Assembly (NCBI GenBank): GCA_036398095.1 | Contig: DASWHR010000127.1 | Coordinates: forward strand, 1,995-65,994 | Direction: 5' to 3' | DNA: 64,000 nucleotides | Origin: Actinomycetota bacterium | Lineage (GTDB): Bacteria; Actinomycetota; AC-67 | Shown: positions 13,864-60,536 of the stretch, piece by piece | Position numbering within the stretch: position 1 is the first letter of the stretch | Layout: every line of letters starts with the position of its first letter | Program-made: the position numbers and the translations under genes | The notes under the pieces: model-generated | Databases searched by the model: none | What the model saw: the letters and a program-made list of their open reading frames with translations, nothing else | Told to the model about the DNA's origin: nothing

Positions 13864-13979
13864 AAGAGTATGACCGGTCGCCCCGATCCGCCACGGCCGG
13901 CCCGATCCGGGTCGGATAGCCTTGGGCCCGGGCGTTCTTGAACCGAGCGTTCGACACGAGTGGACGGCGGAGGTCGAAG

Positions 13980-14213
13980 ATGAAGATCAGCATTGAATAT
14001 TGCGCGGTTTGAGGGTATTCGGCCCGTGCCGTCGGTCTGGCGGCCGCCCTTCTATCCGAGATGGAGCAATCGATTGAGGACCTGCGCATCATCCCTTCCG
14101 GTGGGGGCGTCTTCGAGGTGATCGTGGACGGAGACTTGGTGTATTCGAAGAAGAAGACCGGCCGTCACGCCGAATCCGGCGAGGTCGAGGCGATCATTCG
14201 GAGCCGCGCGTGA
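13980..14213 (+). CDS. SelW-like (Rdx family) selenoprotein with UGA-encoded selenocysteine at codon 11
   Basis: Hand translation gives MKISIEYCAV-U-GYSARAVGLAAALLSEMEQSIEDLRIIPSGGGVFEVIVDGDLVYSKKKTGRHAESGEVEAIIRSRA. The in-frame TGA is at 14010-14012, inside a CxxU redox motif. GGAGG lies 6 nt upstream of the ATG. The stop overlaps the downstream GTG (GTGA). The gene is absent from the ORF track because of the TGA. Confidence 0.85.
14020..14046 (+). promoter_or_regulatory. candidate bacterial SECIS hairpin
   Basis: Stem CGGCC(14020-24)/GGCCG(14042-46) plus GCC(14028-30)/GGC(14039-41), with an 8-nt loop GUCGGUCU. It begins 8 nt after the UGA. Confidence 0.55.
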
Positions 14214-15127
14214 AGCGAGCGCTGCTCATCTGGAATCCCGTCGCGACCACCACCTCCCCCGGCGTGCGCGACGTCATCGCCCGCGCACTGTCGAGCGAGT
14301 TGCACATCGAGGTGGCCGAGACGGTGCAGCGCGGCCACGCGACCGAGTTGGCCGCCGACGCTGCCGCCGGCGAAAGCTTCGATCTGGTGTGCGTACTCGG
14401 AGGCGATGGGACGATCAACGAAGCCGTGAACGGGCTCGCCGGCACCGGCGTGCCGCTGGCCGCGATCCCGGGAGGGGGCACGAACGTGCTCGCGCGCACG
14501 CTCGGCTATCCGAAGGATCCGGTCGAGGCAACCGCCACGCTGCTGGCGAGGATTCGCGACGGGCTCGAACCCAGATCGGTCAACCTCGGACGAGTGAACG
14601 GACGTGCCTTCGCGTTCTGCGCGGGGATGGGCTTCGACGCCGAGGTGGTGCGTCGCGTCGAGTCGAATCCGCGAGCGAAGCGACGATTCGGTGAGGCATT
14701 CTTCGTCGCATCCGGACTTCGCGAATACTTCCTGCCGCGGGAGCGGCCACGTCCGGCTATGACGCTTACGCTGCCGGGCGGTGCGCGCGTCGAGGGCGTG
14801 CGCGTCGCGGTGGTCGGCAACAGCGATCCGTTCACGTTCCTGGGCGCGAGGCCCTTTCGAATCGTGCCGGACGCTCGGCTGGAAGACGGCCTCGATGTGA
14901 CGGCCATTCGAACGATGCGGATCACAACGATCCTTCGCGTGCTGTTCACGGCGTTCGGCTCGGCGCGGCACACGGGATTCAAACGCGTGACCGCGCTCCA
15001 CGACCTCGACGGCTTCACGGTCGAGGCCGACGCGCCGGTTCTGTTTCAGGTTGACGGCGACCTTGCCGGACGCGAGACGCAGTTCCACTTCACCGTCGAG
15101 CGGGATGCGCTCCGACTGATCGGCTAG
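14210..15127 (+). CDS. diacylglycerol kinase family lipid kinase
   Basis: Motifs VLGGDGTINEAVNG and IPGGGTNVLAR mark the DAGK catalytic domain. Confidence 0.9.
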   Translation: MKRALLIWNPVATTTSPGVRDVIARALSSELHIEVAETVQRGHATELAADAAAGESFDLVCVLGGDGTINEAVNGLAGTGVPLAAIPGGGTNVLARTLGYPKDPVEATATLLARIRDGLEPRSVNLGRVNGRAFAFCAGMGFDAEVVRRVESNPRAKRRFGEAFFVASGLREYFLPRERPRPAMTLTLPGGARVEGVRVAVVGNSDPFTFLGARPFRIVPDARLEDGLDVTAIRTMRITTILRVLFTAFGSARHTGFKRVTALHDLDGFTVEADAPVLFQVDGDLAGRETQFHFTVERDALRLIG

Positions 15128-16058: not shown

Positions 16059-16325
16059 TTGGAGAGCATCTCGATGGACTGGCGCCACCAGGCCTCCTGT
16101 CGCGACGTTGACCCCGAGATTTTCTTCCCGATCGGCACCACCGGTCCCGCACTCGCCCAGATCGAGGCCGCCAAGGCCATTTGCGCGATGTGCGCCGTTC
16201 GCGAACCCTGCCTGGAATGGGCGATCGAAACCGCCCAGGACGCCGGGGTGTGGGGCGGCCTGACCGAGGAAGAGCGCCGGTCGCTGCGCCGCAGCCGTGC
16301 AACCCGCCAGCGCGTCGCAGTCTAA
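16059..16325 (+). CDS. whiB: WhiB family transcriptional regulator (whiB1-like by synteny with pdtaS)
   Basis: Four Cys are arranged as C-x22-C-x2-C-x5-C, followed by the GVWGG turn and a basic tail. The start may be the internal MDWRHQ. Confidence 0.9.
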   Translation: MESISMDWRHQASCRDVDPEIFFPIGTTGPALAQIEAAKAICAMCAVREPCLEWAIETAQDAGVWGGLTEEERRSLRRSRATRQRVAV

Positions 16326-16590: not shown

Positions 16591-17306
16591 ACATCGACGG
16601 CGGTCGTCGCCGCCCACAACACGGCCAAGTCGCCGGCCACCTCCTGCGGATGCTCGAGCGGCACGGTGTGCCCGGCATCTTCGAAGATCGTCAAACGTGC
16701 TCCCGAAATCCGCTCGGCCAAATACTGGGCATACTTCACCGGCGCGCACACATCCCGGCCGCCGGCAAACACCTGGGTGCGAACGCGAATCTCGGCGAGG
16801 CGATCCATCACGTCAAAGAGGTCGCACGCCTGCAGATCGGTCAGCGTGTGCTCCATGCCGACGGCCTCCAGCATGCGGCGCAGCACGATCCGCTCGCGAT
16901 CGCCGGCCTTCGGGCCGCACTGCGCGTTGGCGAACACGTCGATGGTGTCGCGGACGCCGTCGGCGAATCCTTCCAGCACCTGCGGCCAGACGCGCAGCCG
17001 CGCGCCGGTGCACGACAAGCCGAGCCCGGCCACGCGCTCGCTGTGCTCCAGCGCCATCCACAGCGCGACCGCGCCGCCGAGCGAGTGTCCGGCGACGGTT
17101 GCACGCTCGACCCCTTCGCGATCCATCGCGGCAACGACCGTGCGCGCATAGGCACCGACACCGCGCTCGCGCTCGGCGTCCGGCCACGCGCACCCGTCGC
17201 GCCCGGGCAGCGCGAGCGCCAGCGTGGGAATCCCGTGGAGGTGTTCCAGGACGCGATCCCACAGCGCCGGCGTGGCGCCCGAGGAGTGGAGAAGGATGAG
17301 CGTCAC
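16587..17306 (-). CDS. alpha/beta hydrolase
   Basis: Nucleophile elbow GHSLGG and a C-terminal DAGH motif. Confidence 0.85.
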   Translation of the reverse strand: MTLILLHSSGATPALWDRVLEHLHGIPTLALALPGRDGCAWPDAERERGVGAYARTVVAAMDREGVERATVAGHSLGGAVALWMALEHSERVAGLGLSCTGARLRVWPQVLEGFADGVRDTIDVFANAQCGPKAGDRERIVLRRMLEAVGMEHTLTDLQACDLFDVMDRLAEIRVRTQVFAGGRDVCAPVKYAQYLAERISGARLTIFEDAGHTVPLEHPQEVAGDLAVLWAATTAVDV

Positions 17307-18760
17307 GACGGCTGCGCCAGCGGGATCTCGACGCGCACCCGCGTTCCGTGATCGGACTCGAGCATGATCGCGCCGCCCAATTCGCTCTCGACGAGCGTCC
17401 GAACGATCTGCAGACCCAGGTTGGAGCTCCGATCGAGCGTGAAGCCTTCGGGGAGTCCCGCGCCGTCATCGGCCACGGTCAACCGGAAGTTCAACCCGCG
17501 TCGCTCGATCGTGACGGCGACGCTCCCGCCGCCTTCGCCAAAGGCGTGATCGACCGCGTTCTGGCACAACTCGTTGAGAACAAGCGCGAGAGGGGTCGCG
17601 ACATCGGCGTCGATCTCGCCGGCGCCGCCCGTGAGCGTGAAACGAACCGGACGGTCTGGCGCGGTGAGCGACTCGCCGACCATCTCCACGACCCGCTGCG
17701 CGACTTGATCGAACTCGACCAGCTCGCTCGAATCCTGGGAGAGCGTTTCGTGCACGAGCGCGATCGAGGAGATGCGCCGGATCGCCTCTTCCAACGCCTC
17801 CTTTCCTTCCGCCGTCCCGACCCGGCGCGTCTGCATCCGCAGCAGCGAGGCCACCGTCTGCAGGTTGTTCTTGACGCGATGGTGAATTTCTCGAATGGTC
17901 GCGTCCTTGAGCACCAGCATGCGATCCCGCCGGCGCAGCTCGGTCGTGTCACGGACGAATCCGAGCGCGCCCTCGACGACGCCTTTGTGCACGATCGGGA
18001 TGAAGCGACGGAGTACGAACGCGCCGTTGGCTTCGATCTCGCTGGTGACCGGCCGTCCGGCCATCAACCGGGCGAGCACCGCCTTGTCTTCGACCTCGGA
18101 TCCGCCGAGCGGCTCGTCCACCAGGTTCGCCGTCACTCCCAGCCGCCGGTAGGCGCTGACGGCATTCGGGCTGACGTAGGTGACGACGCCGGCTTTGTCG
18201 ATCCGCATGAAGCCGTCCCCGACGCGCAAGGGGATTTCATGCTCGGGCTGATCGCCGTCGAACGGGAACTCGCCGTCGGCGATCATCCGCGCCAGGTCGC
18301 CGGCCGCCTGCAGATAGGACAGCTCCAACTTCGACGGGGTCCGCGCGGTGGACAGGTTCTGCTCGCTGGAGACGGCGGCGATGACGCGCCCATCGCATCG
18401 CACCGGGATGACCTCCTCGCGAATCGGGATGCCGTCGCGCCATTCCGGATCGCCTTCGCGCACGATCCGCTCTTCGCTGATCGCGCGAGCGACGCGCGGG
18501 CGCCTAAGAACCATCGCGCCGACCATGTCCTCTTGATACAACGTCTGCGCGGGAAACGGCCGCACCTGCGCCAGCACGACGTAGCCGTCGCCGTCGCGGA
18601 GCGGCGCGAACAGCAGCAAGTCGGCAAAGTTGAAATCGGCGAGCATCTGCCAATCGGCGACGAGCCGCTGCAGATGCATCACATCGCGCTCGCCCAGATC
18701 GGTGAAGCGGCGCGCCAACGGGCGAAGCGGATACATGACGCCGCCAGCATAGCCGGGCAC
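17303..18760 (-). CDS. pdtaS: PdtaS-type sensor histidine kinase (GAF-PAS-HisKA_2-HATPase)
   Basis: The H-box EIHHRVKNNLQTVASLLRMQ is present. N/G boxes: NELCQNAVDHAF, DDGAGLP. It is cytoplasmic (no TM). It sits adjacent to whiB as in mycobacteria. The start may be MYPLRPL (18736). Confidence 0.85.
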   Translation of the reverse strand: MPGYAGGVMYPLRPLARRFTDLGERDVMHLQRLVADWQMLADFNFADLLLFAPLRDGDGYVVLAQVRPFPAQTLYQEDMVGAMVLRRPRVARAISEERIVREGDPEWRDGIPIREEVIPVRCDGRVIAAVSSEQNLSTARTPSKLELSYLQAAGDLARMIADGEFPFDGDQPEHEIPLRVGDGFMRIDKAGVVTYVSPNAVSAYRRLGVTANLVDEPLGGSEVEDKAVLARLMAGRPVTSEIEANGAFVLRRFIPIVHKGVVEGALGFVRDTTELRRRDRMLVLKDATIREIHHRVKNNLQTVASLLRMQTRRVGTAEGKEALEEAIRRISSIALVHETLSQDSSELVEFDQVAQRVVEMVGESLTAPDRPVRFTLTGGAGEIDADVATPLALVLNELCQNAVDHAFGEGGGSVAVTIERRGLNFRLTVADDGAGLPEGFTLDRSSNLGLQIVRTLVESELGGAIMLESDHGTRVRVEIPLAQPS

Positions 18761-23180: not shown

Positions 23181-23405
23181 CCACCGCTCCTTCGCTCGGA
23201 TCGCCGCAGTCGTGCCACGGCTCGGGTCGGATTCTTCCGGAACGACGCCGTGGGAGCAAACCACCGCGTTGCCCGGGCGCGCCGACGCGCGGCGTTCGTC
23301 CCTTCCGCTCCGTCCCGATATGAAAACAGGAACAAATGGCGGTAATCCGGCAGCGCCAAAGGGGACCGCCCGGGGCGAATCGAACGTGATGGGCGGGAGG
23401 GGTTC

Positions 23406-26400
23406 ATGAACGTTCGCTCCAGGGTTCGAGCGGCGCTTCCGGCGCTTGCGATTGCCGCGACGATGCTCGCGCCGGTTCCGGCGTCGGCTGCGCCGCTCGT
23501 CGTCGTCCAGTTGACACCGTCGAACGGGTCGACGGTGTATCCGCCTGCCCAGATCCGGGTCGAGTTCAACCAATGCGTGGACCTGCCGCGCTCGTCGCTG
23601 GAGCTGCGCAGCCCGCAAGGCACGCTGGTGAGCGTCTTCGTCTCGTACCCGAGCTGCAGCAGCATCGTGATCGGTCCGACCGAGACGATCGGAAGCGGCC
23701 AGTTCACGATCTTCGCGTTCGGCGTCACCATCGGCGGCAGCAGCGTGTCGCATAGCGCGACCTTCTTCTCGGACGGCATCGCGCCGGTCCCGCCCGACCC
23801 GGCGATGACGCATCCGATCAACGACGCCAACCGGACCAAGGTTTTCGTGACCGGAACCGGTGAGCCCGGCTCGAGCGTGTTCGTGGTCATCGACGACGAC
23901 AACGGATCCACGCCGGCCGTCGCGTGCGGCGTGTCCGGCCAGCCCCCGTGCGGTCTCGTCGGCGCGGGCGGGCTCTTCGCGGTCGGACCGTTCAACGTGA
24001 CCGGGCTGGACGACTCGCCGGTTCCGTCGACCGTGCTCTCGACGCTGTCGATCAAGGCGACGGTGACCCTGACCGATGCCGCGATGAACGTCTCCCCTCC
24101 GCGCTTCGCCTTCGCGTTCAAAGACGTCCTGTATCCGGCGGCGCCCGCGATCGACTTCCCGTCGGCCGGCATGACCAACGCGAACCAGCGGTGGACCGTC
24201 ACCGGAACGGTCGCGTCACAAGCCGGCTTCGAGCACATGGACCTGCTGCTCTACGACAACGGCGTCGCGGCCGCAACGACGCGCGGCCGCTGCGCGAGCG
24301 GCGTCTGCGCCTGGCACGGCACGATCGTGTCGAACCCGGGCGCGCGAACCTTCGCGGCGCGGGCGCGCGACGCGGCCGGCAACGTCGGACCGTCGTCGCC
24401 GACCGTGGGCGTGACGGTGTCGTCGTCCACCAGTACCGGGCCGATCCGTCCGAGCATCGACATCGACCCCTTCCCGGTCAAGGACGAGTTGTCCGTGTCG
24501 GGCGTGGCGCAGGCAGGCGCGGCGATCGAGATCAAGATCGACGCGGCGCCGTTCGCGGCGTGCGCGACGGCCTCGTTCGGACCGGGAACTCCGAACTATG
24601 CGTGCGGGCCCTTCGACACGTCGGCGCTCGCGCCGGGCATCTTCCCGACGTTGCTGCGAGACCCGTCGGCCAACGGCGGCGTCGCCGGCGTCGCGGTGCT
24701 CAAGGATGTCGTCGCGCCGGTCGCGCCGACCGTTCAATTCACCGACCCCGGTCCGTGGGTCAACGCGCAGCAGGCTTCGTCGCTCCAACTGGACGGCTCG
24801 GCCGAACCGTTCGCGTCGGTGACGGGAACGGTCGCCTCGACCGGCGGCGGCACGTCGGTGGTCTTCACCGGGCAGACCGACGTGTTCGGCAACTGGCACG
24901 CCGTCACGAACGTGGCGCTGCTCAACGACGGCTGCCTCTCGGTGACGGTCAACGCCGTCGACGCCCGCGGGAACGTCTCGGCGGCGGGGACGGCCCCGTG
25001 CGGTCCGACGCTCGACCAGACGGCGCCGCCGGCGCCGGTGATCGTCGTCCCGGCCGAAGGCGCCACCGTGACCTCGACGACGTTCGCCGTGTCCGGCACG
25101 GCCGGCGGCGGCGCGGCGACGGTGCAGGTCTTCGAAGGCGCGACGCTGAAGGCGACCGGAACGGCCGCCGCGTTCTCCGGCGCCGGCATCGCGATCACCG
25201 TCTTCAACGACGGGATCAAGGTGCTGCGCGCGCGCTCGTTCGACCCGGCCGGCAACGTCTCGCCGTTGTCGGCGCCGCGCACGATTCTCCTCGACGCGAA
25301 CGGTCCGGTGCTCGCATCGACCAGCCCGCCGAACAACGGGATCACCAACCCGTCGGCGACCATCACCGCGACCTATACCGATCCCGATCACGCGAGCCTG
25401 GGTTCGTGCACCTTGACGGTCCGCGACAGCGGCGGCGCGCTCGCGATGGGATCGGTCACGGGATCGGGCCTGTCGTGCATCTTCACGGCGGCTTCGGGCG
25501 CGCTCACCGTCGCCGGCAGTCCATACACGGCCACGGTGCAGGCGACCGACCCGGCCGGCAATCAGTCCCAGGTGGACACCTGGCAGTTCTCGATCGACGA
25601 TCAGCCGCCCGCAGCGCCGGTCTTCACCTCGCCGCCCGAAGGGGCGCTCACCGGATCGCCGGTGCAGTTCCAAGGGACCGCCGAACCCGGCTCGACGGTG
25701 CAGCTCTTCTTCGGCGCGACGTTCCTCGGCGGGTCGTTCGCGAATCCGAACTGGTCGATCAGCGCGTTGTTCTCGGACGGCAGCTACACGCTCACCGCCG
25801 TCGCGATCGACGCGGCCGGCAACGTCGGACCCGGCGCGAACCGCTCGATCGTGGTGGACACCACCGCGCCGGCGCCGCCGATCATCACCGCGCCTGCATC
25901 GGGCGCGACGGTCGCGCCGAACACGCCGGTCACCGGAACCGCCGAGGCGGGCGCGACGGTGCGCCTGTTCGAAGGAGCGCTCCTGCTCGGCGAGACGGTC
26001 GCGAACCCGAACTGGTCGATCACGCCGTCCACGCTCGGCGGCGGACCGCACACCGTGACGGCGTTCGCGGTGGATCCCGCCGGCAACACCAGCGCCGGAT
26101 CGTCGCGTTCCTACATCATCGACGCCGCGGCTCCGTCCCAGCCGGTCATCACCGCCCCGGCCGAAGGCGCGTTCTTGCCCTCGACCGGCGTTACCGTCTC
26201 GGGCACCGCCGAGACCGGCAGCACCGTGCGCATCTTCGAAGGAGCCGCCCTGCTCGGCACGCAGCTCGCGACGCCGTCGTGGTCGTTCCCGCTGACCTTC
26301 ACCGAAGCCGCGCACACCGTCCGGGTAAACTCGACCGACATCGCCGGCAACGTCTCAACGGACGCAACCCGATCGTTCACCGTCGATATCACCGCGCCGG

Positions 26401-27263
26401 GCGCGCCCTCGATCTTGTCGCCGGCCAACGGCAGCCTGCAGCCCGCCACGTTCACGCTGTCGGGAATCGCCGAGCGTCTCGCGCTCGTCGAAATCTTCGA
26501 AGGCGCCACGCTGATCACCTCGACCACCGCGACGTCCACCGGAACCTGGACCGCGTCCGTCACCGCGAGCGACGGGCCGCACACCTATACGGCGCGGCAG
26601 ACCGATCAGGCCGGCAACGTCGGACCGCTTTCGCCGGGCCGGCTGATCAACGTCGATGCCATCCCGCCGGGACCGCCCACGATCACCTCGCCGGTGGAAG
26701 GCGCAGTGCTCAAGCGCCGCGTGTCGATTCAGGGAACGGCCGCCGAGCCGGGCGGCGTGGTCACGATCCTGGAGAGCGGGCAGCCGATCGCGGTCGCGCA
26801 AGTGAGCGGCGCCGGCACGTGGGAGGTCGTCTACGACTTCCCCAACGACGCGACGCATTCGATCGTCGCGCGACAAACCGACCTCGCCGGCAACGTGGGC
26901 GGCGACAGCGCGCTGCGCACGTTCATCACGGACGGCACGCCGCCGACGATCGACATGGCGACGGCCGGGTTCTACCCCGCGGCACCGTTCGTGTCGATCG
27001 CGACACCGACCTTCACCGGCTCGGCGTCCGACAACCGAGGCGTTACCCAGGTCGATGTGCGGATTCTGGATCTGCTCGGGAGCGTCGCTTCCAGCGGACA
27101 GGCGATCTGCGCCTGCGGCAACACGGCGACGCCGGTGACGTGGACCTATACACCGCCCGGCCTGCTGCCCGGCATCTACACGATCGAAGTGACCGGCACC
27201 GACCAGGCCGGCAACGTCACCGCGCCGCCGGCGAAGCTCACCTTCGTGACGCTCGGCCTGTGA
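23406..27263 (+). CDS. secreted Ig-like domain repeat protein (1285 aa)
   Basis: Signal peptide ending PASAAP. At least 9 modules of about 90 aa follow the pattern D..AP..P.I..P..G......V.GTAE.G.TV..FEG......A...W......H.....D.AGN.S. Confidence 0.85.
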   Translation: MNVRSRVRAALPALAIAATMLAPVPASAAPLVVVQLTPSNGSTVYPPAQIRVEFNQCVDLPRSSLELRSPQGTLVSVFVSYPSCSSIVIGPTETIGSGQFTIFAFGVTIGGSSVSHSATFFSDGIAPVPPDPAMTHPINDANRTKVFVTGTGEPGSSVFVVIDDDNGSTPAVACGVSGQPPCGLVGAGGLFAVGPFNVTGLDDSPVPSTVLSTLSIKATVTLTDAAMNVSPPRFAFAFKDVLYPAAPAIDFPSAGMTNANQRWTVTGTVASQAGFEHMDLLLYDNGVAAATTRGRCASGVCAWHGTIVSNPGARTFAARARDAAGNVGPSSPTVGVTVSSSTSTGPIRPSIDIDPFPVKDELSVSGVAQAGAAIEIKIDAAPFAACATASFGPGTPNYACGPFDTSALAPGIFPTLLRDPSANGGVAGVAVLKDVVAPVAPTVQFTDPGPWVNAQQASSLQLDGSAEPFASVTGTVASTGGGTSVVFTGQTDVFGNWHAVTNVALLNDGCLSVTVNAVDARGNVSAAGTAPCGPTLDQTAPPAPVIVVPAEGATVTSTTFAVSGTAGGGAATVQVFEGATLKATGTAAAFSGAGIAITVFNDGIKVLRARSFDPAGNVSPLSAPRTILLDANGPVLASTSPPNNGITNPSATITATYTDPDHASLGSCTLTVRDSGGALAMGSVTGSGLSCIFTAASGALTVAGSPYTATVQATDPAGNQSQVDTWQFSIDDQPPAAPVFTSPPEGALTGSPVQFQGTAEPGSTVQLFFGATFLGGSFANPNWSISALFSDGSYTLTAVAIDAAGNVGPGANRSIVVDTTAPAPPIITAPASGATVAPNTPVTGTAEAGATVRLFEGALLLGETVANPNWSITPSTLGGGPHTVTAFAVDPAGNTSAGSSRSYIIDAAAPSQPVITAPAEGAFLPSTGVTVSGTAETGSTVRIFEGAALLGTQLATPSWSFPLTFTEAAHTVRVNSTDIAGNVSTDATRSFTVDITAPGAPSILSPANGSLQPATFTLSGIAERLALVEIFEGATLITSTTATSTGTWTASVTASDGPHTYTARQTDQAGNVGPLSPGRLINVDAIPPGPPTITSPVEGAVLKRRVSIQGTAAEPGGVVTILESGQPIAVAQVSGAGTWEVVYDFPNDATHSIVARQTDLAGNVGGDSALRTFITDGTPPTIDMATAGFYPAAPFVSIATPTFTGSASDNRGVTQVDVRILDLLGSVASSGQAICACGNTATPVTWTYTPPGLLPGIYTIEVTGTDQAGNVTAPPAKLTFVTLGL

Positions 27264-45178: not shown

Positions 45179-45203
45179 TCTTACATCACCGTACTCGTAT
45201 GAT
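45179..45203 (+). promoter_or_regulatory. inverted repeat upstream of vapB (candidate operator)
   Basis: TACATCA-N11-TGATGTA overlaps a TATGAT -10-like hexamer, 15 nt upstream of the ATG. Confidence 0.35.
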
Positions 45204-45217
45204 GTATCCTCCACCTT

Positions 45218-45430
45218 ATGAAACGGCTGCAGATCAGCATCGAGGAAGAGCTCGACGACGCGCTGGCCGTCGAGGCGAGCCGGCGCCGGACCTCCAAAGC
45301 GGCGCTGATCCGGCAGTACGTTCGCGAACGCTTGGGGCGCAGCCGTCCCGCCCCCGATCCCCTGACTGCGCTCGTCGGGGACATCGACGACGAGGCCGGC
45401 GACATCGACGCGATCGTCTACGACCGGTGA
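45218..45430 (+). CDS. vapB: RHH (CopG/VapB-type) antitoxin
   Basis: MKRLQISIEEELDDALAVEASRRRTSKAALIRQYVRERL. Confidence 0.8.
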   Translation: MKRLQISIEEELDDALAVEASRRRTSKAALIRQYVRERLGRSRPAPDPLTALVGDIDDEAGDIDAIVYDR

Positions 45431-49368: not shown

Positions 49369-49719
49369 TCACAGCGAGAGGTGGGTTCGTAGCGCGTCGG
49401 CGACCAGGCCAAGTTCCGCGTCGGGAACAGAGCCGATTCTGCGGCCCAGACGCGACGTTGCGATCGTGCGCACCTGATGGCACAGAGCCAGCGAATCAGC
49501 GCGAAGTCCTGCCGTTCCTTTGTTCAGGCGCACTTCGGATGGATAGGTGCGCCGGCCACGTCGAAGCGTGGTGACGGGAACGATCGTCACGATCGGCATC
49601 ACCTCGTTGAACAGGTCGTTGCTCACAACAACGACCGGCCGCGATCCCGCTTGCTCGGACCCTTCGACCGGGCCGAGGCGCGCCGCGTAGATCGCTCCGC
49701 GTCGCGGCCGGTCGCTCAC
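49369..49719 (-). CDS. mazF: MazF/PemK family type II toxin
   Basis: PRRGAIYAARLGPVEGSEQAGSRPVVVVSND...PVT... and ...ALCHQVRTI. Confidence 0.85.
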   Translation of the reverse strand: MSDRPRRGAIYAARLGPVEGSEQAGSRPVVVVSNDLFNEVMPIVTIVPVTTLRRGRRTYPSEVRLNKGTAGLRADSLALCHQVRTIATSRLGRRIGSVPDAELGLVADALRTHLSL

Positions 49720-49970
49720 GGCGCGGAGTCCTCGTCGTCCGAGTCCGCGAACGCGTTCTGCAGATCGTCGACGTCGGCAACAAAGAGTGGATCCGCCGCC
49801 GCAGCGGCGTAGGCGTCCCGCAACGCGCGCCGGCGAGCTTCGTCGAGGTAGTTCACAACGGCATCCTGAACGAGCCGGCTCTGCGATTTGGCCAGTCCCG
49901 CGTCCACCGCCTGCTTGAGGTCGTAGACGACCGACTCTTCCATGGCCAACGTCACCTTGCGCTTCGACAT
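49716..49970 (-). CDS. RHH antitoxin partner
   Basis: 84 aa with an acidic C-terminus. 4-bp overlap with the toxin. Confidence 0.75.
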   Translation of the reverse strand: MSKRKVTLAMEESVVYDLKQAVDAGLAKSQSRLVQDAVVNYLDEARRRALRDAYAAAAADPLFVADVDDLQNAFADSDDEDSAP

Positions 49971-50036
49971 ACCACCAAGACTACCATACTATTTTGCCAT
50001 ACATACTAGACGGGTGCGTACGGGCCGGCGCATCGT

Positions 50037-53580: not shown

Positions 53581-55923
53581 ATGCTGCTGTCCCGTCGGCA
53601 CCACCGGTCCAATCGGTCCTATCGGTCCTGGCAGGCGGCGCTGGTCGCCGTCGGCATGCTCTTGGCATCGCTGGCATCCGCATCGTCGGCTGAAGAGCCC
53701 TGCACGACCATGCCGGCTCCCGGCACACCCCGGGAGTCGTCCACGTACCGGGAGTCCGTGCCGAGCTTGGAATTGCAGTCGGCGATCGCGGGCTATCTCC
53801 GCGGCGACCCCGACGCATCGTTTTCGTTCTTCAATTGCGAGGTCGACTTCTTCGCGACGGTCCCGAAGACGACCGTGCCTTCCTACGCCGTCCCGACGCT
53901 GACATCGCTCGGCCTGTCCACCACGCCGCGTGCACCCGAGCGCGTGCCGGCGCCGACCGACACGGCGAAACCGGCGCAGAATCTCGACGCGGACCTGTCT
54001 CGAAAGGTGCCGCTCGATCTAGAGGAAGACACCAGGGAAACCGGCGACGCCGAACCGCTCGAGATCCTCGACGGAATCGGCTTGGATCCCGGCCTGCTGG
54101 CACCGACGCAACCCGAGAATCGGACCGCTCCGGCGATCGTGCTCGAGCCGCGCGACAACACCTACCGGCCGGCCACGCCCGAGCAAACCGCGCTCGAGTC
54201 CCGCGCCGCCGCGCCGATCCTGGATGCGTTCCTGTCACAGAACGAATCGGTGTTCCGTCCGATGGGATCGTCGTTGCAGATGAGCGAGTTTCGGATCGGA
54301 CGTTTCGGCCGTCGCGCGCTGTTCGAGCAGATGCCCGGCGGCGTGAAGCTGCTCGAGTCCCGCACGGTCGTGCTGTTCGACAACAACTGGAATGTCGCCG
54401 GGATCTCGCGCATGATCGCCTCGCCGGCAAAGCTCTATGCCGACCGGTCCTCGACGGTCCCCGAGGCCGACGCGGTGCGCATCGCCAAGGGCGCGGCCGC
54501 CGCGGCGCTCGACATTCCCGAAGCGAGCATGCAGGTCGCCTCGGCCGAGCACGGGATCGATGCGATCGGCCGGCACATGGCCTGGCACGTGCGGCTGCTG
54601 TCGTCGCACACCGTTGAATTCGACGCCACCGTCGCCATCCACGCCGGCACCGGCGCGGTGCTCAACATCAGCGACGACGTCATGCACTACACCGACGCGA
54701 AGCTGCGGCGCTGGGGCTACACCAACGGCGACGAAGACAACGCCGTCCAAGTCGTCGCCGGCGGCCAATACACCGCGGACGACAACACGATGCGGCACGA
54801 CTACTTCTACATGCAGAGCGACGAGCGTGACGGCGGCGGCGATCCCGCCGTCCTGCCGGCCGCCTGCGTCACCGCCAACGGGTGGGGCGCCAACACCCGG
54901 GTTCGCGCCAACGCGTACGGCACCACCAGCGGGGCCGTCGATGCGATCCGTCACACGCATCGGCCGGATCGCGACTTCAGCATCTGGAGTCCGGCTCACT
55001 CCGCCGGCAGCTTCGCCGAATCCCACGCCTACTACTGGGCGCGCAAGTACTTCCTGTGGCAGAAGACTGCCTTCGAAGAGCTCGGCGCGCTCCCCGTTTC
55101 GAACTCCAAGAAGCTCAACATTCTGGTGAACACCTGCATCAACGACGTGGGCATCGCGAACTCGACCGCGGTGGCGACCCAGCACAACGAGGCCGAGTCG
55201 AACCCGAAGAACTGGATCGTGGAGTTTTGCCGGTCGGGACTTCCGGCGTGCCCGGCGTCGTCGTATGCGAATTCGGGAAACGATTTCATCACCTGCCAGG
55301 GCGGCGGCTGCTCCTTGCATCCCTCGGTCATCCACCACGAGATCAACCACTACGCGATGGGGACGCTGTTCGGGGTCGGCAGCAGCATCAACTGCAACTC
55401 CGGCGTCCAGCTCGGGTTCCTTCACGAAGGCGGACTGGGCTCGGCGGTGCCGCAAGCGTTCTGGCATTACTGGTACGGCGTCGGCTACAACCCGCCGGTC
55501 GATCGCCTCTTCACCGCCGACGTCGTCCGCGGCCAAGTCCATGCGAGCAACGCGACGCGACTGACCGTCGGAAACTATCTGTGCGTCAACAACGACGACG
55601 GCGGGCAGGGCGCCTACGAAGCCGGCCGCGTCGCCGGACAACCGCTGTGGGAGATCTATCACGGCAAGAAGGTGTCGGGAAGCACGATCACCAACATGCT
55701 GCGGCCCGCGACCGATACCGACTTTCAGATCCTGACTTTCTGGGCCGCCGACCTCGTCGCCGGCTCGACCTACAAGGACCGCTACGAGATGGCCAACCGC
55801 TTCATGCAGGTCATCCTGAACTACGGAAACTTCACCAGCGCCGCGCAAAAGGCATCGGTCAAGGCCGACTGGTGCGAGACCTGGACCCACCACAGCCTGG
55901 GCACCTTCATCAACGACTGCTGA
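53581..55923 (+). CDS. secreted zinc metalloprotease (HExxH; thermolysin/fungalysin-like with a PepSY/FTP-type propeptide)
   Basis: A signal peptide is present. The propeptide-like segment is EADAVRIAKGAAAAALDI...WHVRL. The active site reads VIHHEINHY, with a downstream LHEGGLGS that could supply the third zinc ligand. Confidence 0.7.
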   Translation: MLLSRRHHRSNRSYRSWQAALVAVGMLLASLASASSAEEPCTTMPAPGTPRESSTYRESVPSLELQSAIAGYLRGDPDASFSFFNCEVDFFATVPKTTVPSYAVPTLTSLGLSTTPRAPERVPAPTDTAKPAQNLDADLSRKVPLDLEEDTRETGDAEPLEILDGIGLDPGLLAPTQPENRTAPAIVLEPRDNTYRPATPEQTALESRAAAPILDAFLSQNESVFRPMGSSLQMSEFRIGRFGRRALFEQMPGGVKLLESRTVVLFDNNWNVAGISRMIASPAKLYADRSSTVPEADAVRIAKGAAAAALDIPEASMQVASAEHGIDAIGRHMAWHVRLLSSHTVEFDATVAIHAGTGAVLNISDDVMHYTDAKLRRWGYTNGDEDNAVQVVAGGQYTADDNTMRHDYFYMQSDERDGGGDPAVLPAACVTANGWGANTRVRANAYGTTSGAVDAIRHTHRPDRDFSIWSPAHSAGSFAESHAYYWARKYFLWQKTAFEELGALPVSNSKKLNILVNTCINDVGIANSTAVATQHNEAESNPKNWIVEFCRSGLPACPASSYANSGNDFITCQGGGCSLHPSVIHHEINHYAMGTLFGVGSSINCNSGVQLGFLHEGGLGSAVPQAFWHYWYGVGYNPPVDRLFTADVVRGQVHASNATRLTVGNYLCVNNDDGGQGAYEAGRVAGQPLWEIYHGKKVSGSTITNMLRPATDTDFQILTFWAADLVAGSTYKDRYEMANRFMQVILNYGNFTSAAQKASVKADWCETWTHHSLGTFINDC

Positions 55924-56075
55924 ACACCGAGATTTGGCTCAACTGGCATATTTTCCCATGTCGGATATATCCCCAGAAGGATTGGACGCCCCGACGGCGA
56001 ATTGCTCATTGCGACACAAATGTCGGCTACGTCACCACCGTCCCGATAGGGATCGCTCACGGAGGTCTGGGGAGC

Positions 56076-59000
56076 ATGAATTCAATCCGACGACGGTTCG
56101 TATTCTTGCTGGTCCTTTCCGTGCTGGCCGGCGCAGGCACGGCGATTGCCAGTCACACGGGGCCGGCCACGATCGGCGATTTCGAAATCGACGGCAACAC
56201 GACCGACGATGCGCTGGCCGGCATCGACTGGGACACGTTCCCGGAGGCGGTGACATTCGACGATCCCGAAGGGACCGAGTGCACGACCGACGACGACATC
56301 TTCACCACCGGCGGCTCGAAAGAGAACACCCCGGGATTGTGGGTGTACGGCTGCGGCTCGGCGCCCTCGAAGAGCGACATCGTCTCGGGCGCAACGGGCA
56401 CGCGTGACGTCAACGGCGAGTCGTTCCTCTACATCTCGTTTGCGCGCCTGGGCGACAACGGCGAAGCGAACCTGAGCGTCGAGTTCAACCAGTCCGACGA
56501 CACCTTCGACAACGACAACAACCCGACCACGCCCGAGGTGGTCTTCCGGACCGCCGGCGACCTGATGGTCTTCCTCGAGGTCACCCTCGGCGGACAGGTG
56601 ACCGCGCCGACGGTGTTCGTCTGGACGGGCACGCACATCAGCGGCGCGTGGGTGGACACCACCGGCACCGCCGTCCAGGGCACCGACTGGGACGCGGCGA
56701 CCAACGCGAACGCTCAGGGCCGTTGGAACTTCGCAGAGGCCGCGCTGAGACTCTCGGCGTTCGGCTTCGTGAAAGACTGCCCCGGCCCCGGCCTCCATTG
56801 GCTGAAGACCAACTCGACCAGCGACATCACCGGCGGCGTGCTCAAGGACCGCACCGTCCGCAAGTCGCTGGATCTTTCGAACTGCGCGACAAAGAACTGG
56901 ACGTTCAGCTTCGACCCCGAGCCGATCGCCGGCGCGTCGGTCTTCGCCGTCTACACGGTACCCGGCGGCGAGAACCGCGAGATCGAGCTAACCGACGCCG
57001 ACCAGGACGGCACCTACACGGCCCAGGACACGAGCATCCCTCCCGGCAACGTCACCTATCACTTCGAGGTTCGAAACGGCGCGTCGCTGATCTGGCAGAG
57101 CGCGGAAGGCAACGAGACGTTCGCGCCCGACGAGACCAAGACGAACTCGGGGTCGATGCACTACGACATCACCCTGACGCCGGAGAGCGCCGAGAACTTC
57201 GACGACGACCCGCACACCTTCACCGCGTTCGTGTTCGAGGTCGGCACCAACACGCCGCTTCCGAACGTTCCGGTCAACTTCGAGCTGTTCGGCGGCACCC
57301 CCGACGGGTGCGGAAGCCTCGACCCGACGTCCGGCCTGACGGCGGCCGGCGGAACCATCACCACGACCCTGTCCTCAACCGGGCCCTGCACCACCTCGGT
57401 TCGGGCCTGGATCAACAGCGCGCTCGGGGCGACGACCGGCCTCGACGACGGCGAAGCGTCGGATGCTTCGACGAAGAGCTTCGTCGAGTACGCGCTAACG
57501 GTTACGCCCGGCGACGCCAGCAACGAGACCGGGCAGCCTCACACGTTTACGATCACGCTGACCAAGGACTCGGGCGGCGGGCCGGCCGGTGTTTCCGGCG
57601 CCGCCGTGGACTTGACGCTTGACCCCGGAACCTCGGACGCGCACTTCACCACCGTGAGCGCCGGCACAGTCGTGGACGACACCCACGCGACCTGCACCAC
57701 CGACACGAGCGGGCAGTGCACGGCCACGATCGAGGCCACGACGGCCGGCGATGTGTCCCTGACGGCGAGCTACCTGGCGTCGGACAGCTCCGGGAACACG
57801 CGCACGATCACCGGCGAAGCGAACAAGGCGTACCGGACGTTCGCGTTGAGCGTCACGCCCGGCGATGCCACCAACGAGGTTGACGATCCGCACACGTTCA
57901 CCGTCACGCTCACCCAGGACTCCGGCGTCGAGCCGGTCGGCCTCGCCGGCGAGACGGTCTCGCTCGCCCTCGACCCGGGGACGTCGGACGCGCACTTTAC
58001 CGCCGTCGAGACGGGCACGATCGTCGACGACACCCATGCGACCTGCACGACGAACCTGTTGGGTCAGTGCACGGCCACGATCGTGGCGGCCACGCCCGGC
58101 TCGGTCACGCTCACCGCGAGCTGGAGCAACGAGACGATCGTGACCGGCGGCGCGTCGACAAGCGACACGGCCGGCAAGCAGTATCTCGACTTCCGCCTGA
58201 CCGCATCGCCCGACGACGCGACCAACGAAGTCGGCGACCCGCACACGTTCACGATCACGCTCGAACAAGACGACGGCACCGGCTTCTCCGGACTCGCCGG
58301 CGAAACGGTCTCGCTCACCCTCGACCCGGGAACGTCCGACGCGCACTTCACCGCCGTCGAGACGGGCACCGTCGTCGACGACACCCACGCAACCTGCACG
58401 ACCAACGCCGGCGGGCAATGCACCGCCACGATCGTGGCGACCACGCCCGGCTCGGTCACGCTCACCGCGAACTGGAGCAACGAGACGATCGTGACCGGCG
58501 GCGCGTCGGACGGCGACACGGCCGGGAAGACGTATCTCGAATTCCGCCTTGGCGTCACACCGGCAGAAGCCGTCAACCTGGTCGGCGACCCGCACACGTT
58601 CACGATCACGCTCGAGCAGAACGACGGCTCCGGTTTCACGGGCCTGGCCGGCGAGACGGTCTCGCTCACCCTCGACCCGGGAGCGACCGACGCGCACTTC
58701 ACCGCCGTCGAGACGGGCACCGTCGTCGACGACACCCACGCGACCTGCACGACCAACGCCGGCGGGCAATGCACGGCCACGATCGTGGCGGCCATGCCCG
58801 GCTCGGTCACGCTCACCGCGAACTGGGACAACCAGACGATCGTCGTGGGAGGCGCGAGCCGCGACGCATCCGCATCGAAGACCTACGTGGCGGTCTCGCT
58901 CGCCAAGAGCTCGTGCCCGGACGATCGGGTCACGCGCGGCGGCATCCTCACCTACCGGATCGACTTCTCGACCTCCGGTGCGACGCTGACGAACGCCACC

Positions 59001-60536
59001 CTGATCGACGACCTGCCGGCGGAGATTCGATTCGTGGCGGCCGATCCGATCGCCGGCGTAACACCGGTGACGCCCGCAGTGGGCGACTCGAACGGCACGG
59101 TCTCGTGGACGTTCTCGACGCTGCCGCCCGGCGAGTACTCGGCGACGATCACCGTCGAGGTTGCGCCGGCGAGCCAGACCAACGGTCCGTATGCGAGGCT
59201 GGGCGAGAAGATCACCAATAGCGTCGTGCTGGACGCCGACGAGATCCCCGAGCAGTCGGCCTCGCACGACGTGCTGGTTACCAACGAGGGCGCGGCGGCC
59301 GACGGACGCGCCTTCGGGATCAGCCTGACGGCCCTCGCGACGGAGCTGATCGCGCCGACGCCCGACAGCGACGTCGCAAGCCCGGCGGAGCTGCGCAGCG
59401 TTCCCAACCCGTTGGGTCCGCCGGCGCCGCTGGCCAGGCTGCTGCGCGTCGTGGAGACCAACAACGCGAAGTCCGACTCGACCGGCTACACGGCGTCGGC
59501 GACCGCGGTCGACGTCAACGCGGAGGTGCCCGGCCTCGTCAAGGTCGAAGCCGACAGCGTGATCGCGCGGTCGTCGAGCTTCGCCCAGGTCTCCGGAGCC
59601 GGCTCCTCGCACTCCGGATCGATCGTCCAGAACCTGCGCGTCAACGACACGCAGCACGGTGACATCTCGGAGCCGACGACGATCGAGGTGAAGGACGGCG
59701 CCGGGAACATAATCGCCGAGGTGCACGTGCTGGAGCGGATCGCCTCCGGCGCCGCGGCCGAGGAAACGCAGCCGTCGACGGCCGACATGACCTTCGCCAG
59801 CGGCCTGGCCGTCAACGGGATCCACGTCGTCGTCTACGACCTGGCGTTGACGCCGATCGACGAGTCGACCGACCTGATCGTCTCCCACGCCGAAACGTCC
59901 GCCGCCTACCCGTCGGGCCTTGCCTGCGACGCGGCCATCCCGGCGGTGTCGGGACGCGCGGCGGCCGTCGAGACGGCGAACCTGACGCCCGACGCGACCA
60001 ACGTGGTCGTCGCCGAGGTGATCCTGCCGATCACCGGCGGCACGCGGTCGGCGAGCCTGGCCGACGTGGACCTGCCCTCGGTCGGGACGTCCGACTCGGC
60101 GTTCACCTCCACGCAGGGCAGCATCTCCGGCGACGGGAGCCCGCAGGCTTCCTCCAGCGCGCAGATCAAGGGACTCGACCTGCTCGGAGGCACGATCACG
60201 GCGACCCTGGTTCAGGCGACGTCGTCGAGCACGGCCGCCGGATCGACCGGCGATGCCGTCATCGCCGACCTTGAAATCGCCGGCATTCCGGTCTGCGTCG
60301 AATGCGACCCGGACGTCGACGAAGTGCTGCTCGGCATTCCCGACACGGTGATCCTGCTCAACGAGCAGATCCCCGAGCCGGGAGGCCTGACCGTCATCGC
60401 GATCCACATCTTCGTGGTCGGTGAAGGCAACCCGCTCGGTCTGCCGGTCGGAGCCGAGATCCTGATCTCCAGCGCGCACTCGGACGTGCACGCGGCGGAC
60501 GCGCCGTCGCGGACGAAGCTGCCGATCGAAGGCTGA
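56076..60536 (+). CDS. 1486-aa secreted repeat adhesin-like protein (Big/invasin-type repeats, DUF11-like domain, long C-terminal beta domain)
   Basis: GGAGG lies upstream of ATG 56076. Signal peptide MNSIRRRFVFLLVLSVLAGAGTAIA. The listed 1884-aa ORF begins out of frame inside the protease gene. No LPxTG motif or TM anchor is seen. Confidence 0.85.
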   Translation: MNSIRRRFVFLLVLSVLAGAGTAIASHTGPATIGDFEIDGNTTDDALAGIDWDTFPEAVTFDDPEGTECTTDDDIFTTGGSKENTPGLWVYGCGSAPSKSDIVSGATGTRDVNGESFLYISFARLGDNGEANLSVEFNQSDDTFDNDNNPTTPEVVFRTAGDLMVFLEVTLGGQVTAPTVFVWTGTHISGAWVDTTGTAVQGTDWDAATNANAQGRWNFAEAALRLSAFGFVKDCPGPGLHWLKTNSTSDITGGVLKDRTVRKSLDLSNCATKNWTFSFDPEPIAGASVFAVYTVPGGENREIELTDADQDGTYTAQDTSIPPGNVTYHFEVRNGASLIWQSAEGNETFAPDETKTNSGSMHYDITLTPESAENFDDDPHTFTAFVFEVGTNTPLPNVPVNFELFGGTPDGCGSLDPTSGLTAAGGTITTTLSSTGPCTTSVRAWINSALGATTGLDDGEASDASTKSFVEYALTVTPGDASNETGQPHTFTITLTKDSGGGPAGVSGAAVDLTLDPGTSDAHFTTVSAGTVVDDTHATCTTDTSGQCTATIEATTAGDVSLTASYLASDSSGNTRTITGEANKAYRTFALSVTPGDATNEVDDPHTFTVTLTQDSGVEPVGLAGETVSLALDPGTSDAHFTAVETGTIVDDTHATCTTNLLGQCTATIVAATPGSVTLTASWSNETIVTGGASTSDTAGKQYLDFRLTASPDDATNEVGDPHTFTITLEQDDGTGFSGLAGETVSLTLDPGTSDAHFTAVETGTVVDDTHATCTTNAGGQCTATIVATTPGSVTLTANWSNETIVTGGASDGDTAGKTYLEFRLGVTPAEAVNLVGDPHTFTITLEQNDGSGFTGLAGETVSLTLDPGATDAHFTAVETGTVVDDTHATCTTNAGGQCTATIVAAMPGSVTLTANWDNQTIVVGGASRDASASKTYVAVSLAKSSCPDDRVTRGGILTYRIDFSTSGATLTNATLIDDLPAEIRFVAADPIAGVTPVTPAVGDSNGTVSWTFSTLPPGEYSATITVEVAPASQTNGPYARLGEKITNSVVLDADEIPEQSASHDVLVTNEGAAADGRAFGISLTALATELIAPTPDSDVASPAELRSVPNPLGPPAPLARLLRVVETNNAKSDSTGYTASATAVDVNAEVPGLVKVEADSVIARSSSFAQVSGAGSSHSGSIVQNLRVNDTQHGDISEPTTIEVKDGAGNIIAEVHVLERIASGAAAEETQPSTADMTFASGLAVNGIHVVVYDLALTPIDESTDLIVSHAETSAAYPSGLACDAAIPAVSGRAAAVETANLTPDATNVVVAEVILPITGGTRSASLADVDLPSVGTSDSAFTSTQGSISGDGSPQASSSAQIKGLDLLGGTITATLVQATSSSTAAGSTGDAVIADLEIAGIPVCVECDPDVDEVLLGIPDTVILLNEQIPEPGGLTVIAIHIFVVGEGNPLGLPVGAEILISSAHSDVHAADAPSRTKLPIEG
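57480..58890 (+). repeat. four tandem 351-bp coding repeats (117-aa Ig-like modules)
   Basis: The string CACACGTT recurs at 57540, 57891, 58242 and 58593, an exact 351-bp period. Units 3 and 4 are nearly identical over long stretches. A diverged unit 0 precedes them at about 57140. Confidence 0.85.

Follow-up and report, generated by a model that had tools for sequence, protein, structure and literature searches.

Bacterial SelW-like selenoproteins, which carry a CXXU motif (U being selenocysteine, Sec), have been known since 2004-2005 and are catalogued in PMC1088965, PMC1794560 and PMC2398784. In marine metagenomes they have long been recognised to outnumber every other bacterial selenoprotein family, with 427 SelW-like genes against 56 Cys homologues in the Global Ocean Sampling data (PMC2398784), and have few Cys homologues in Sec-using organisms (PMC1794560). 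Here we describe a gene of this kind at positions 13980-14213 (+ strand) of a 64,000-nucleotide (nt) stretch of DNA, hereafter the window, from an uncultured member of the Actinomycetota (assembly GCA_036398095.1, contig DASWHR010000127.1). We confirm that this is a real SelW-like gene and conclude, with a probability that we put at about 0.88, that its in-frame UGA (14010-14012) encodes selenocysteine. The gene is a mis-annotated further member of an established family, in which neither the motif nor the recoding mechanism is new. It has in common with the catalogued proteins the domain, the size (~75-90 amino acids, aa) and the N-terminal CxxU; likewise, a small hairpin with a G in the loop comes after the in-frame UGA, close Cys homologues are few, and mis-annotation is frequent. 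Unlike them, it comes from Actinomycetota of soil and sediment metagenomes, whereas the surveys stress marine plankton, Deltaproteobacteria and Clostridia, and its operon linkage to a lipid kinase of the DAGK/YegS type was not found in that literature in a non-exhaustive search. The additions are modest: the lineage, a selenocysteine insertion sequence (SECIS) that occurs in two registers, a probable fossil SECIS and the lipid kinase operon, of which only the operon is mildly new.

Mammalian selenoprotein W and the Cys paralogues Rdx12 and MIEN1/C17orf37 (2LJK) belong to the same Rdx fold family and have the CxxU/CxxC motif at the same position. The eukaryotic members, however, use a SECIS in the 3′ untranslated region together with SBP2/eEFSec, whereas the bacterial gene has its hairpin inside the coding sequence. 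The gene and its immediate signals in the window are as follows:

13969-13973, + strand: Shine-Dalgarno-like GGAGG, with a 6-nt spacer before the ATG at 13980 (direct sequence reading)
13980-14213, + strand: coding sequence of the SelW-like (Rdx family) selenoprotein, 77 residues including Sec11, plus stop (translation, Pfam Rdx, TIGR02174)
14001-14003, + strand: TGC codon of Cys8, the resolving Cys of the CxxU redox motif, invariant among orthologues
14010-14012, + strand: in-frame TGA, predicted selenocysteine codon (Sec11; TGA conservation and Sec/Cys pairing)
14061-14213, + strand: 50-aa truncated open reading frame (ORF) from Met28, which gene callers output instead of the full gene
14211-14213, + strand: stop TGA of the Rdx gene, overlapping the GTG (14210-14212) of the lipid kinase gene as GTGA

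The frame reads M-K-I-S-I-E-Y-C-A-V, TGA (14010-14012), then GYSARAVGLAAALLSEMEQS...RSRA, giving the active-site motif C8-A-V-U11; besides this TGA, the frame 13980-14213 contains no other lesions. A first-pass annotation, made from the letters of the window, had proposed the read-through of IEYCAV-TGA with its motif and family signature, a GGAGG 6 nt before the ATG, and the overlap of the stop with the start of the lipid kinase gene. Translation and profile matches bore out the first of these, and the other two are present exactly as proposed.

A mechanical ORF listing of the locus reported only the Met28 fragment. The identical 50-aa product has been called by public pipelines on four independent contigs, with a Pfam Rdx match on record there, and a near-identical protein cluster, different by one residue, is already named 'selenoprotein W-related protein'. 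The in-frame TGA almost certainly stands for Sec, which is why gene callers cut the gene to a 50-residue stub. Most close homologues are also reported as stubs of 43-62 aa or as 'Trp' artefacts of genetic code 4; once correctly annotated, the protein regains its catalytic CxxU motif.

With U written as C, the protein matched Pfam Rdx (PF10262) end to end at 73.9 bits (cutoff 22.6), residues 2-74 lying on profile positions 1-73/74, in agreement with the family that the first-pass annotation had named. The Met28 fragment, in which profile positions 1-28 of the Rdx domain are missing, and with them its first strand and entire redox motif, scored 38.6 bits. Thus ~35 bits, about half of the family signal, come from the stretch before and across the TGA (IEYCxxU). 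In addition, the protein scored 59.9 bits against NCBIfam TIGR02174 (CXXU_selWTH; cutoff 34.2); its score against the NCBIfam equivalog NF041051 (SelTWH_Campy), 78.2 bits, was under the cutoff of 88, as for a related protein that is not that equivalog. The CxxC of the solved Cys-type bacterial structures 2FA8 (Atu0228), 3DEX (Streptomyces avermitilis SAV_2001), 2OKA, 2OBK and 2P0G aligns onto C-A-V-U. The homology to these proteins extends over residues 2-76 (E = 4e-10 to 4e-6), and from it (E = 4e-10) a thioredoxin-like fold is predicted for the 77-residue protein. The Cys-type proteins, thioredoxin-like structural-genomics targets of unknown function, differ from the window protein in having Cys for Sec, in being 25-30 residues longer, and in needing no recoding element.

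Conservation of the TGA was analysed by a codon-blind metagenome search, whose seed alignment (A2) begins after the Sec site, so that there was no selection for that codon. The search returned at least 530 related stretches, of which the best 80 loci were examined for the codon at the Sec site. All of them (80/80) have TGA there, after a conserved (I/L)EYCxx. The sequence of the window locus occurs letter for letter in four independent assemblies. The syntenic orthologue in a metagenome-assembled genome (L005, GCA_964463315.1; 71% protein identity) reads V-E-L-S-I-E-Y-C-A-V-TGA-G-Y-A-E-R-A-V-G-L-A-A, and in L008, a distant homologue from a 3.6-Mb contig, the sequence is S-I-E-Y-C-S-Q-TGA-N-Y. 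Two outcomes that the first-pass annotation had named as refuting did not occur: the homologues can be aligned over IEYCxx, before Met28, and the codon that they have at the Sec site is TGA or Cys, with no unrelated sense codon.

A pseudogene, or an assembly error, could also present a TGA at this position if a Cys codon had been mutated or misread. A change from TGC or TGT to TGA needs one base, and Cys-form homologues exist. This explanation is, however, effectively refuted by the four identical assemblies, the TGA in 80/80 diverged orthologues and the frame without further lesions, and we regard it as very improbable.

The codons before the TGA behave as those of a protein. Cys-3 (numbered from the Sec site; Cys8 of the window protein) is invariant in 76/76 orthologues and is encoded by TGC in 62 and TGT in 14. 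Its neighbours vary synonymously: Tyr-4 is TAC in 64 and TAT in 11, Glu-5 is GAA in 42 and GAG in 26, and Ile-6 is ATC in 57 and ATT in 12. Over the stretch before the TGA, comparison with 75 orthologues gave 248 synonymous and 102 nonsynonymous codon differences, and in 53/76 orthologues there is a start codon 10 codons ahead of the TGA. Since the upstream residues are kept while their codons vary, translation and protein-level selection act on this N-terminal decapeptide region, as would be expected only if ribosomes read on past the TGA.

The same data bear on the possibility that the true product is the 50-aa protein from Met28 (14061), with the IEYCAV-TGA stretch as an untranslated leader. 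The Met28 start is the gene-caller output here and at dozens of related loci. Yet the fragment is an Rdx domain without its first strand and redox motif, the codons before the TGA are under protein-level purifying selection, and the conserved start codon with its Shine-Dalgarno sequence stands 10 codons before the TGA. Met28 itself is not conserved, orthologues having Y, F, H, L or W there. We consider a Met28 product highly unlikely, and the full-length Sec-containing protein remains our reading of the locus. Two sequences stand apart. One orthologue (L080, 2481 region) has the TGA and a normal C-terminal part with a disrupted N-terminus ('NFPGFAILR*WF', not xxIEYCxx), which could mark a pseudogene, a rearranged gene or a chimeric contig; a database protein, P0004, has Ser at the Sec site.

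The TGA is a normal stop codon elsewhere in the window. In the genes for PdtaS, AccD, a molybdopterin oxidoreductase and a ribbon-helix-helix (RHH) protein, as well as in the Rdx gene itself, a terminal TGA coincides exactly with the end of the encoded domains, and sequence that looks non-coding then follows. As TGA is otherwise an ordinary stop, a local signal is needed to recode 14010-14012. These gene ends also effectively refute an alternative code in which UGA would be read as Trp (code 4) or Gly (code 25), as does the TGA at the end of the Rdx gene, and the organism is an actinobacterium of 68% GC (the GC content of the window). What speaks for such a code is that some full-length orthologue entries in databases read 'CAVW' (P0002, P0006 and P0034), with Trp at the Sec site. 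The DNA of these proteins (loci L114:990-1241 and L115:104-334) has TGA at this point, and the entries do not match the table 11 translation; they are artefacts of code-4 gene calling on short contigs. We take an alternative code to be exceedingly improbable.

The first-pass annotation had also described a hairpin shortly after the UGA, and folding of the window sequence gave the following elements:

14021-14048, + strand: predicted bacterial SECIS hairpin (minimum free energy, MFE, structure at -13.4 kcal/mol)
14028-14033 / 14039-14044, + strand: SECIS upper stem of 6 bp, conserved and covarying across 57 distinct orthologues
14034-14038, + strand: SECIS apical loop GGUCU of 5 nt, starting 21 nt after the UGA
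14021-14023 / 14046-14048 plus G14026-C14045, + strand: SECIS lower stem, with a bulged U14027, predicted from the window sequence only

The published rules for bacterial SECIS elements (PMC13188914, Fig. 2) ask for a loop of 3-9 nt, an upper stem of 4-16 bp, a G in the first two loop positions, a spacing of 16-37 nt and an MFE of at most -7.5 kcal/mol. The window hairpin conforms to every one of them, with its 5-nt loop, 6-bp upper stem and 21-nt spacing, a G in both loop positions 1 and 2 (in an N1-G-U-N-N2 pattern), and an energy of -8.9 kcal/mol for the stem-loop alone or -13.4 kcal/mol with the lower stem. The first-pass annotation was right that a hairpin with a GGUC-containing loop exists; the register that it gave, with an 8-nt loop GUCGGUCU (14031-14038), is not the conserved one. 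That register is equivalent to the control in which the 3′ arm is slid by -3, and was rejected with 58% of cells paired against 85.7% in the conserved register.

The hairpin was compared across 77 distinct TGA-form sequences, with positions counted from the U of the UGA as 0. All 77 have a rule-conforming hairpin (PMC13188914 rules), and 75/77 form the stem in one of two registers. Register A (59/77) has its stem at nt 18-23/29-34 and its loop at 24-28; in register B (16/77) the stem is shifted 4 nt upstream, to 13-19/25-31, with the loop at 20-24. In register A, 85.7% of cells are paired, as opposed to 14-58% in controls with the 3′ arm displaced by 1-3 nt, and double-sided changes occur in 5/7 pairs. 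Covariation in this register was 0.260, compared with 0.141 for shuffles, and the observed value was reached by 0/500 shuffles; RNAalifold independently recovered the core helix. Register B gave 91.3% paired cells against 20-45% in slid registers. The lower stem and the bulged U of the window structure are not conserved among the orthologues, in about half of which position 17 pairs with 35.

The loops of the orthologues are almost always N-G-U-N-N (GGUCU in 34, AGUUU in 9, AGGAU in 7, AGUCU in 5 and CGUGA in 9). Where the loop codon encodes Gly, it is GGU in 34/34 cases, whereas in the remainder of these genes GGU makes up 57/359 (16%) of the Gly codons; a Ser loop codon is AGU in 14/14 cases compared with 6/260 elsewhere. 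The loop U is the third position of this codon and is fixed at a synonymous site, which points to selection on the RNA, at the G-U dinucleotide. This fixation is the strongest single result for the hairpin, and the comparison as a whole shows that the hairpin is maintained by RNA-level selection and not merely by the encoded peptide. The register was also seen to track the peptide (L031-L110, alignments A3/A4, nt +13 to +35), A-V-G-L-(A/T) going with register A and A-V-S-M-(V/A) with register B.

SelB contacts the E. coli fdhF SECIS, the paradigm of bacterial SECIS elements, at a G-U dinucleotide. Both that element and the one in the window are coding-region hairpins directly 3′ of the UGA, with a GGUC(U) loop in which G-U is what is conserved, and the MFE structure of the window hairpin also has a bulged U (U14027) below the upper stem, a feature that is not conserved in its orthologues. 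The loop G-U is at nt 23-24 in fdhF, one codon closer to the UGA, and at nt 26-27 in register A or 22-23 in register B; the stem sequence of the window hairpin is unrelated. The first-pass annotation had likewise placed a GGUC in the fdhF loop, and we confirmed it by finding the exact sequence under fdhF in 5,419/5,426 E. coli genomes.

Besides the TGA forms, 21 more distant homologues in named genomes, found with a motif back-translated with Cys (a search that could return Cys forms only), have TGC or TGT at the Sec site, as does the database protein P0008. Those from named genomes come from Chloroflexota, Solirubrobacterales, Demequina, Nitrospirota and Dormiibacterota. With a stem threshold of 5/6 pairs in register A or 6/7 in register B, 18/19 distant Cys forms fell under it; by the rule-based scoring 12/19 conform, though weakly, with a mean of -4.2 kcal/mol as against -8.95 in Sec forms. 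Absence of the hairpin from Cys forms was considered as a clean control and is only partly valid as one, since the 18/19 distant forms are without it and P0008 has it. The simplest reading of the P0008 hairpin is that Sec was recently converted to Cys and that the SECIS persists as a probable fossil; fossils of this kind after such a conversion have been described (PMC1794560). In the P0008 locus (L113) the neighbouring gene encodes a Ser/Thr protein kinase, not a lipid kinase. The comparative set comprises 77 distinct SECIS elements in two registers plus this one probable fossil in a Cys form, and it shows co-evolution of a coding-region SECIS with the peptide that it encodes.

Several results weigh against the selenocysteine reading. 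Taken alone, the window hairpin is no better than chance when compared with dinucleotide shuffles (z = -0.1 to -0.3); a 6-bp stem arises 22% of the time when synonymous codons are resampled for the same peptide; and in Rfam no family matched the hairpin at either the gathering or a permissive threshold. The significance of the hairpin therefore comes from the comparative data only, and not from the window sequence alone. Among these comparative data, the nominal P-values for the loop codon ignore phylogenetic non-independence and so are inflated, the effect itself being absolute. The closest Cys form, P0008 (L113:601-870, + strand), has TGT at the Sec site and an identical 17-nt hairpin GCCGTCGGTCTGGCGGC with the GGUCU loop, and encodes the same R-A-V-G-L-A-A peptide as the window gene; as it keeps the hairpin, the presence of the hairpin by itself is not diagnostic of Sec. 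Finally, ARAGORN found no tRNA gene at all in the 64-kb window, nor a tRNA-Sec in any of 31 loci, and tblastn with E. coli queries found no SelA, SelB or SelD in the window or in the flanks of close relatives.

The last of these results bear on a further explanation, by which the UGA is read by a near-cognate tRNA (Trp/Cys), or the Sec machinery has been lost, with little or no full-length product made from an inherited gene. In its favour are the Sec machinery not found in the accessible sequence (the window and the relatives' flanks) and the loss of the Sec trait and of selenoproteins documented in sister lineages (PMC1794560). However, the gene is intact, with the motif, the SECIS stem and the GGU loop codon all present, and the TGA is kept in 80/80 relatives, whereas loss of the machinery should bring rapid conversion to TGC/TGT or decay. 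Moreover, one related carrier has a Sec-containing SelD nearby. This was the sole match of tblastn with E. coli SelA, SelB and SelD over ~985 kb of locus DNA: a SelD homologue, 38% identical to E. coli SelD, at L054:14431-15459 (+ strand) on the 121-kb contig Ga0209450_10000025, 4.4 kb downstream of a TGA-form Rdx orthologue. An in-frame TGA occurs in this gene too, where E. coli SelD has Cys17 ('SCAG*ASK'), so that it encodes a Sec-containing SelD, which gene callers would likewise truncate. This carrier, at least, decodes Sec. The missing sel genes say little, given that ~64 kb of the genome was accessible. We therefore consider near-cognate reading or loss of the machinery quite unlikely.

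On the preferred reading, that of UGA as Sec, selA, selB, selC and selD would be present in this Actinomycetota genome, and the lineage (uncultured Actinomycetota of soil and sediment) is a probable selenocysteine user. A crude screen of the window for a second selenoprotein gene, which took TGAs flanked by high-GC3 frames with Cys/Ser/Thr motifs, gave nothing convincing: the candidates were artefacts, off-frame or antisense, or the normal ends of genes.

Recoding of the UGA at 14010-14012 would then follow the mechanism established for Sec in bacteria. By analogy with it, SelB-GTP-Sec-tRNA(Sec) would bind the GGUCU-loop hairpin inside the coding sequence, and SelB, competing with release factor 2, would bring Sec to the ribosome. 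Translation would terminate at the second TGA (14211-14213), which has no such hairpin. The protein would be a small thioredoxin-fold thiol/selenol oxidoreductase, cycling between a selenolate/thiol form and an intramolecular Cys8-Sec11 selenenylsulfide, and would reduce a partner as its substrate; its gene would be the first cistron of an operon with the YegS/DAGK-type lipid kinase.

The neighbourhood of the gene contains the following features:

14200-14203, + strand: GGAG of the lipid kinase gene itself (direct sequence reading)
14210-15127, + strand: lipid kinase with DAGK_cat/YegS_C, 305 aa, GTG start (Pfam and NCBIfam)
16068-16325, + strand: WhiB-family regulator, downstream of the Rdx-kinase-GDPD cluster
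17303-18739, - strand: PdtaS-type GAF histidine kinase, adjoining the WhiB gene

The order Rdx(Sec), lipid kinase, GDPD (on the opposite strand) and WhiB recurs in at least 10 diverged loci, including L005, L102, L031, L033, L037, L038, L043 and L053. The kinase start is usually within ~35 nt of the Rdx stop, and overlaps it in the window and in L102. A functional link behind this conserved operon next to GDPD/WhiB, by redox regulation or by Sec-gated translation of the kinase, is a tentative idea that we think unlikely. If the former were true, the selenoprotein would redox-regulate lipid phosphorylation of the DAG-kinase type; if the latter, Sec insertion at the UGA would gate translation of the downstream kinase by coupling through the GTGA overlap. 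Either link would make membrane-lipid metabolism responsive to selenium or redox state, and would be a first functional lead for bacterial SelW-like proteins. A WhiB gene was again seen downstream in the syntenic loci L005, L037 and L102, and a PdtaS gene in L005; the pairing of WhiB with PdtaS is reminiscent of that of whiB1 and pdtaS in mycobacteria. WhiB, PdtaS and the 68% GC, together with an AccD-like protein whose best named matches are without exception proteins labelled 'MAG: Actinomycetota bacterium' (identities of 92% or less), place the window in an uncultured Actinomycetota lineage.

Farther from the gene, the window contains two long ORFs for repetitive surface proteins and a small one:

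23346-27263, + strand: Ig-like repetitive surface protein ORF, ~1,300 codons (Big_13, Big_6 and related, from the public gene table)
45203-45430, + strand: small CopG/RHH_1 ribbon-helix-helix ORF (Pfam E = 4e-7)
54831-60536, + strand: Ig-like repetitive surface protein ORF, ~1,900 codons (Pfam Big_1, Filamin)

The ORF at 54831-60536 contains about four near-identical repeats of ~150 aa ('TPGDATNEVGDPHTFTITLEQDDG...'). The RHH protein is possibly an antitoxin; a small ORF at 49716-49988 (- strand) resembles it by eye and has an acidic C-terminus, and gave no Pfam match. The window comes from another, longer assembly than the ENA contigs ERZ27256989:k141_3131858 and ERZ27256991:k141_1785629, and further sequence of this genome is public: these two contigs end ~23-24 kb to the right of the gene, where the window continues for ~50 kb, but on the left they extend ~32-43 kb beyond window position 1.

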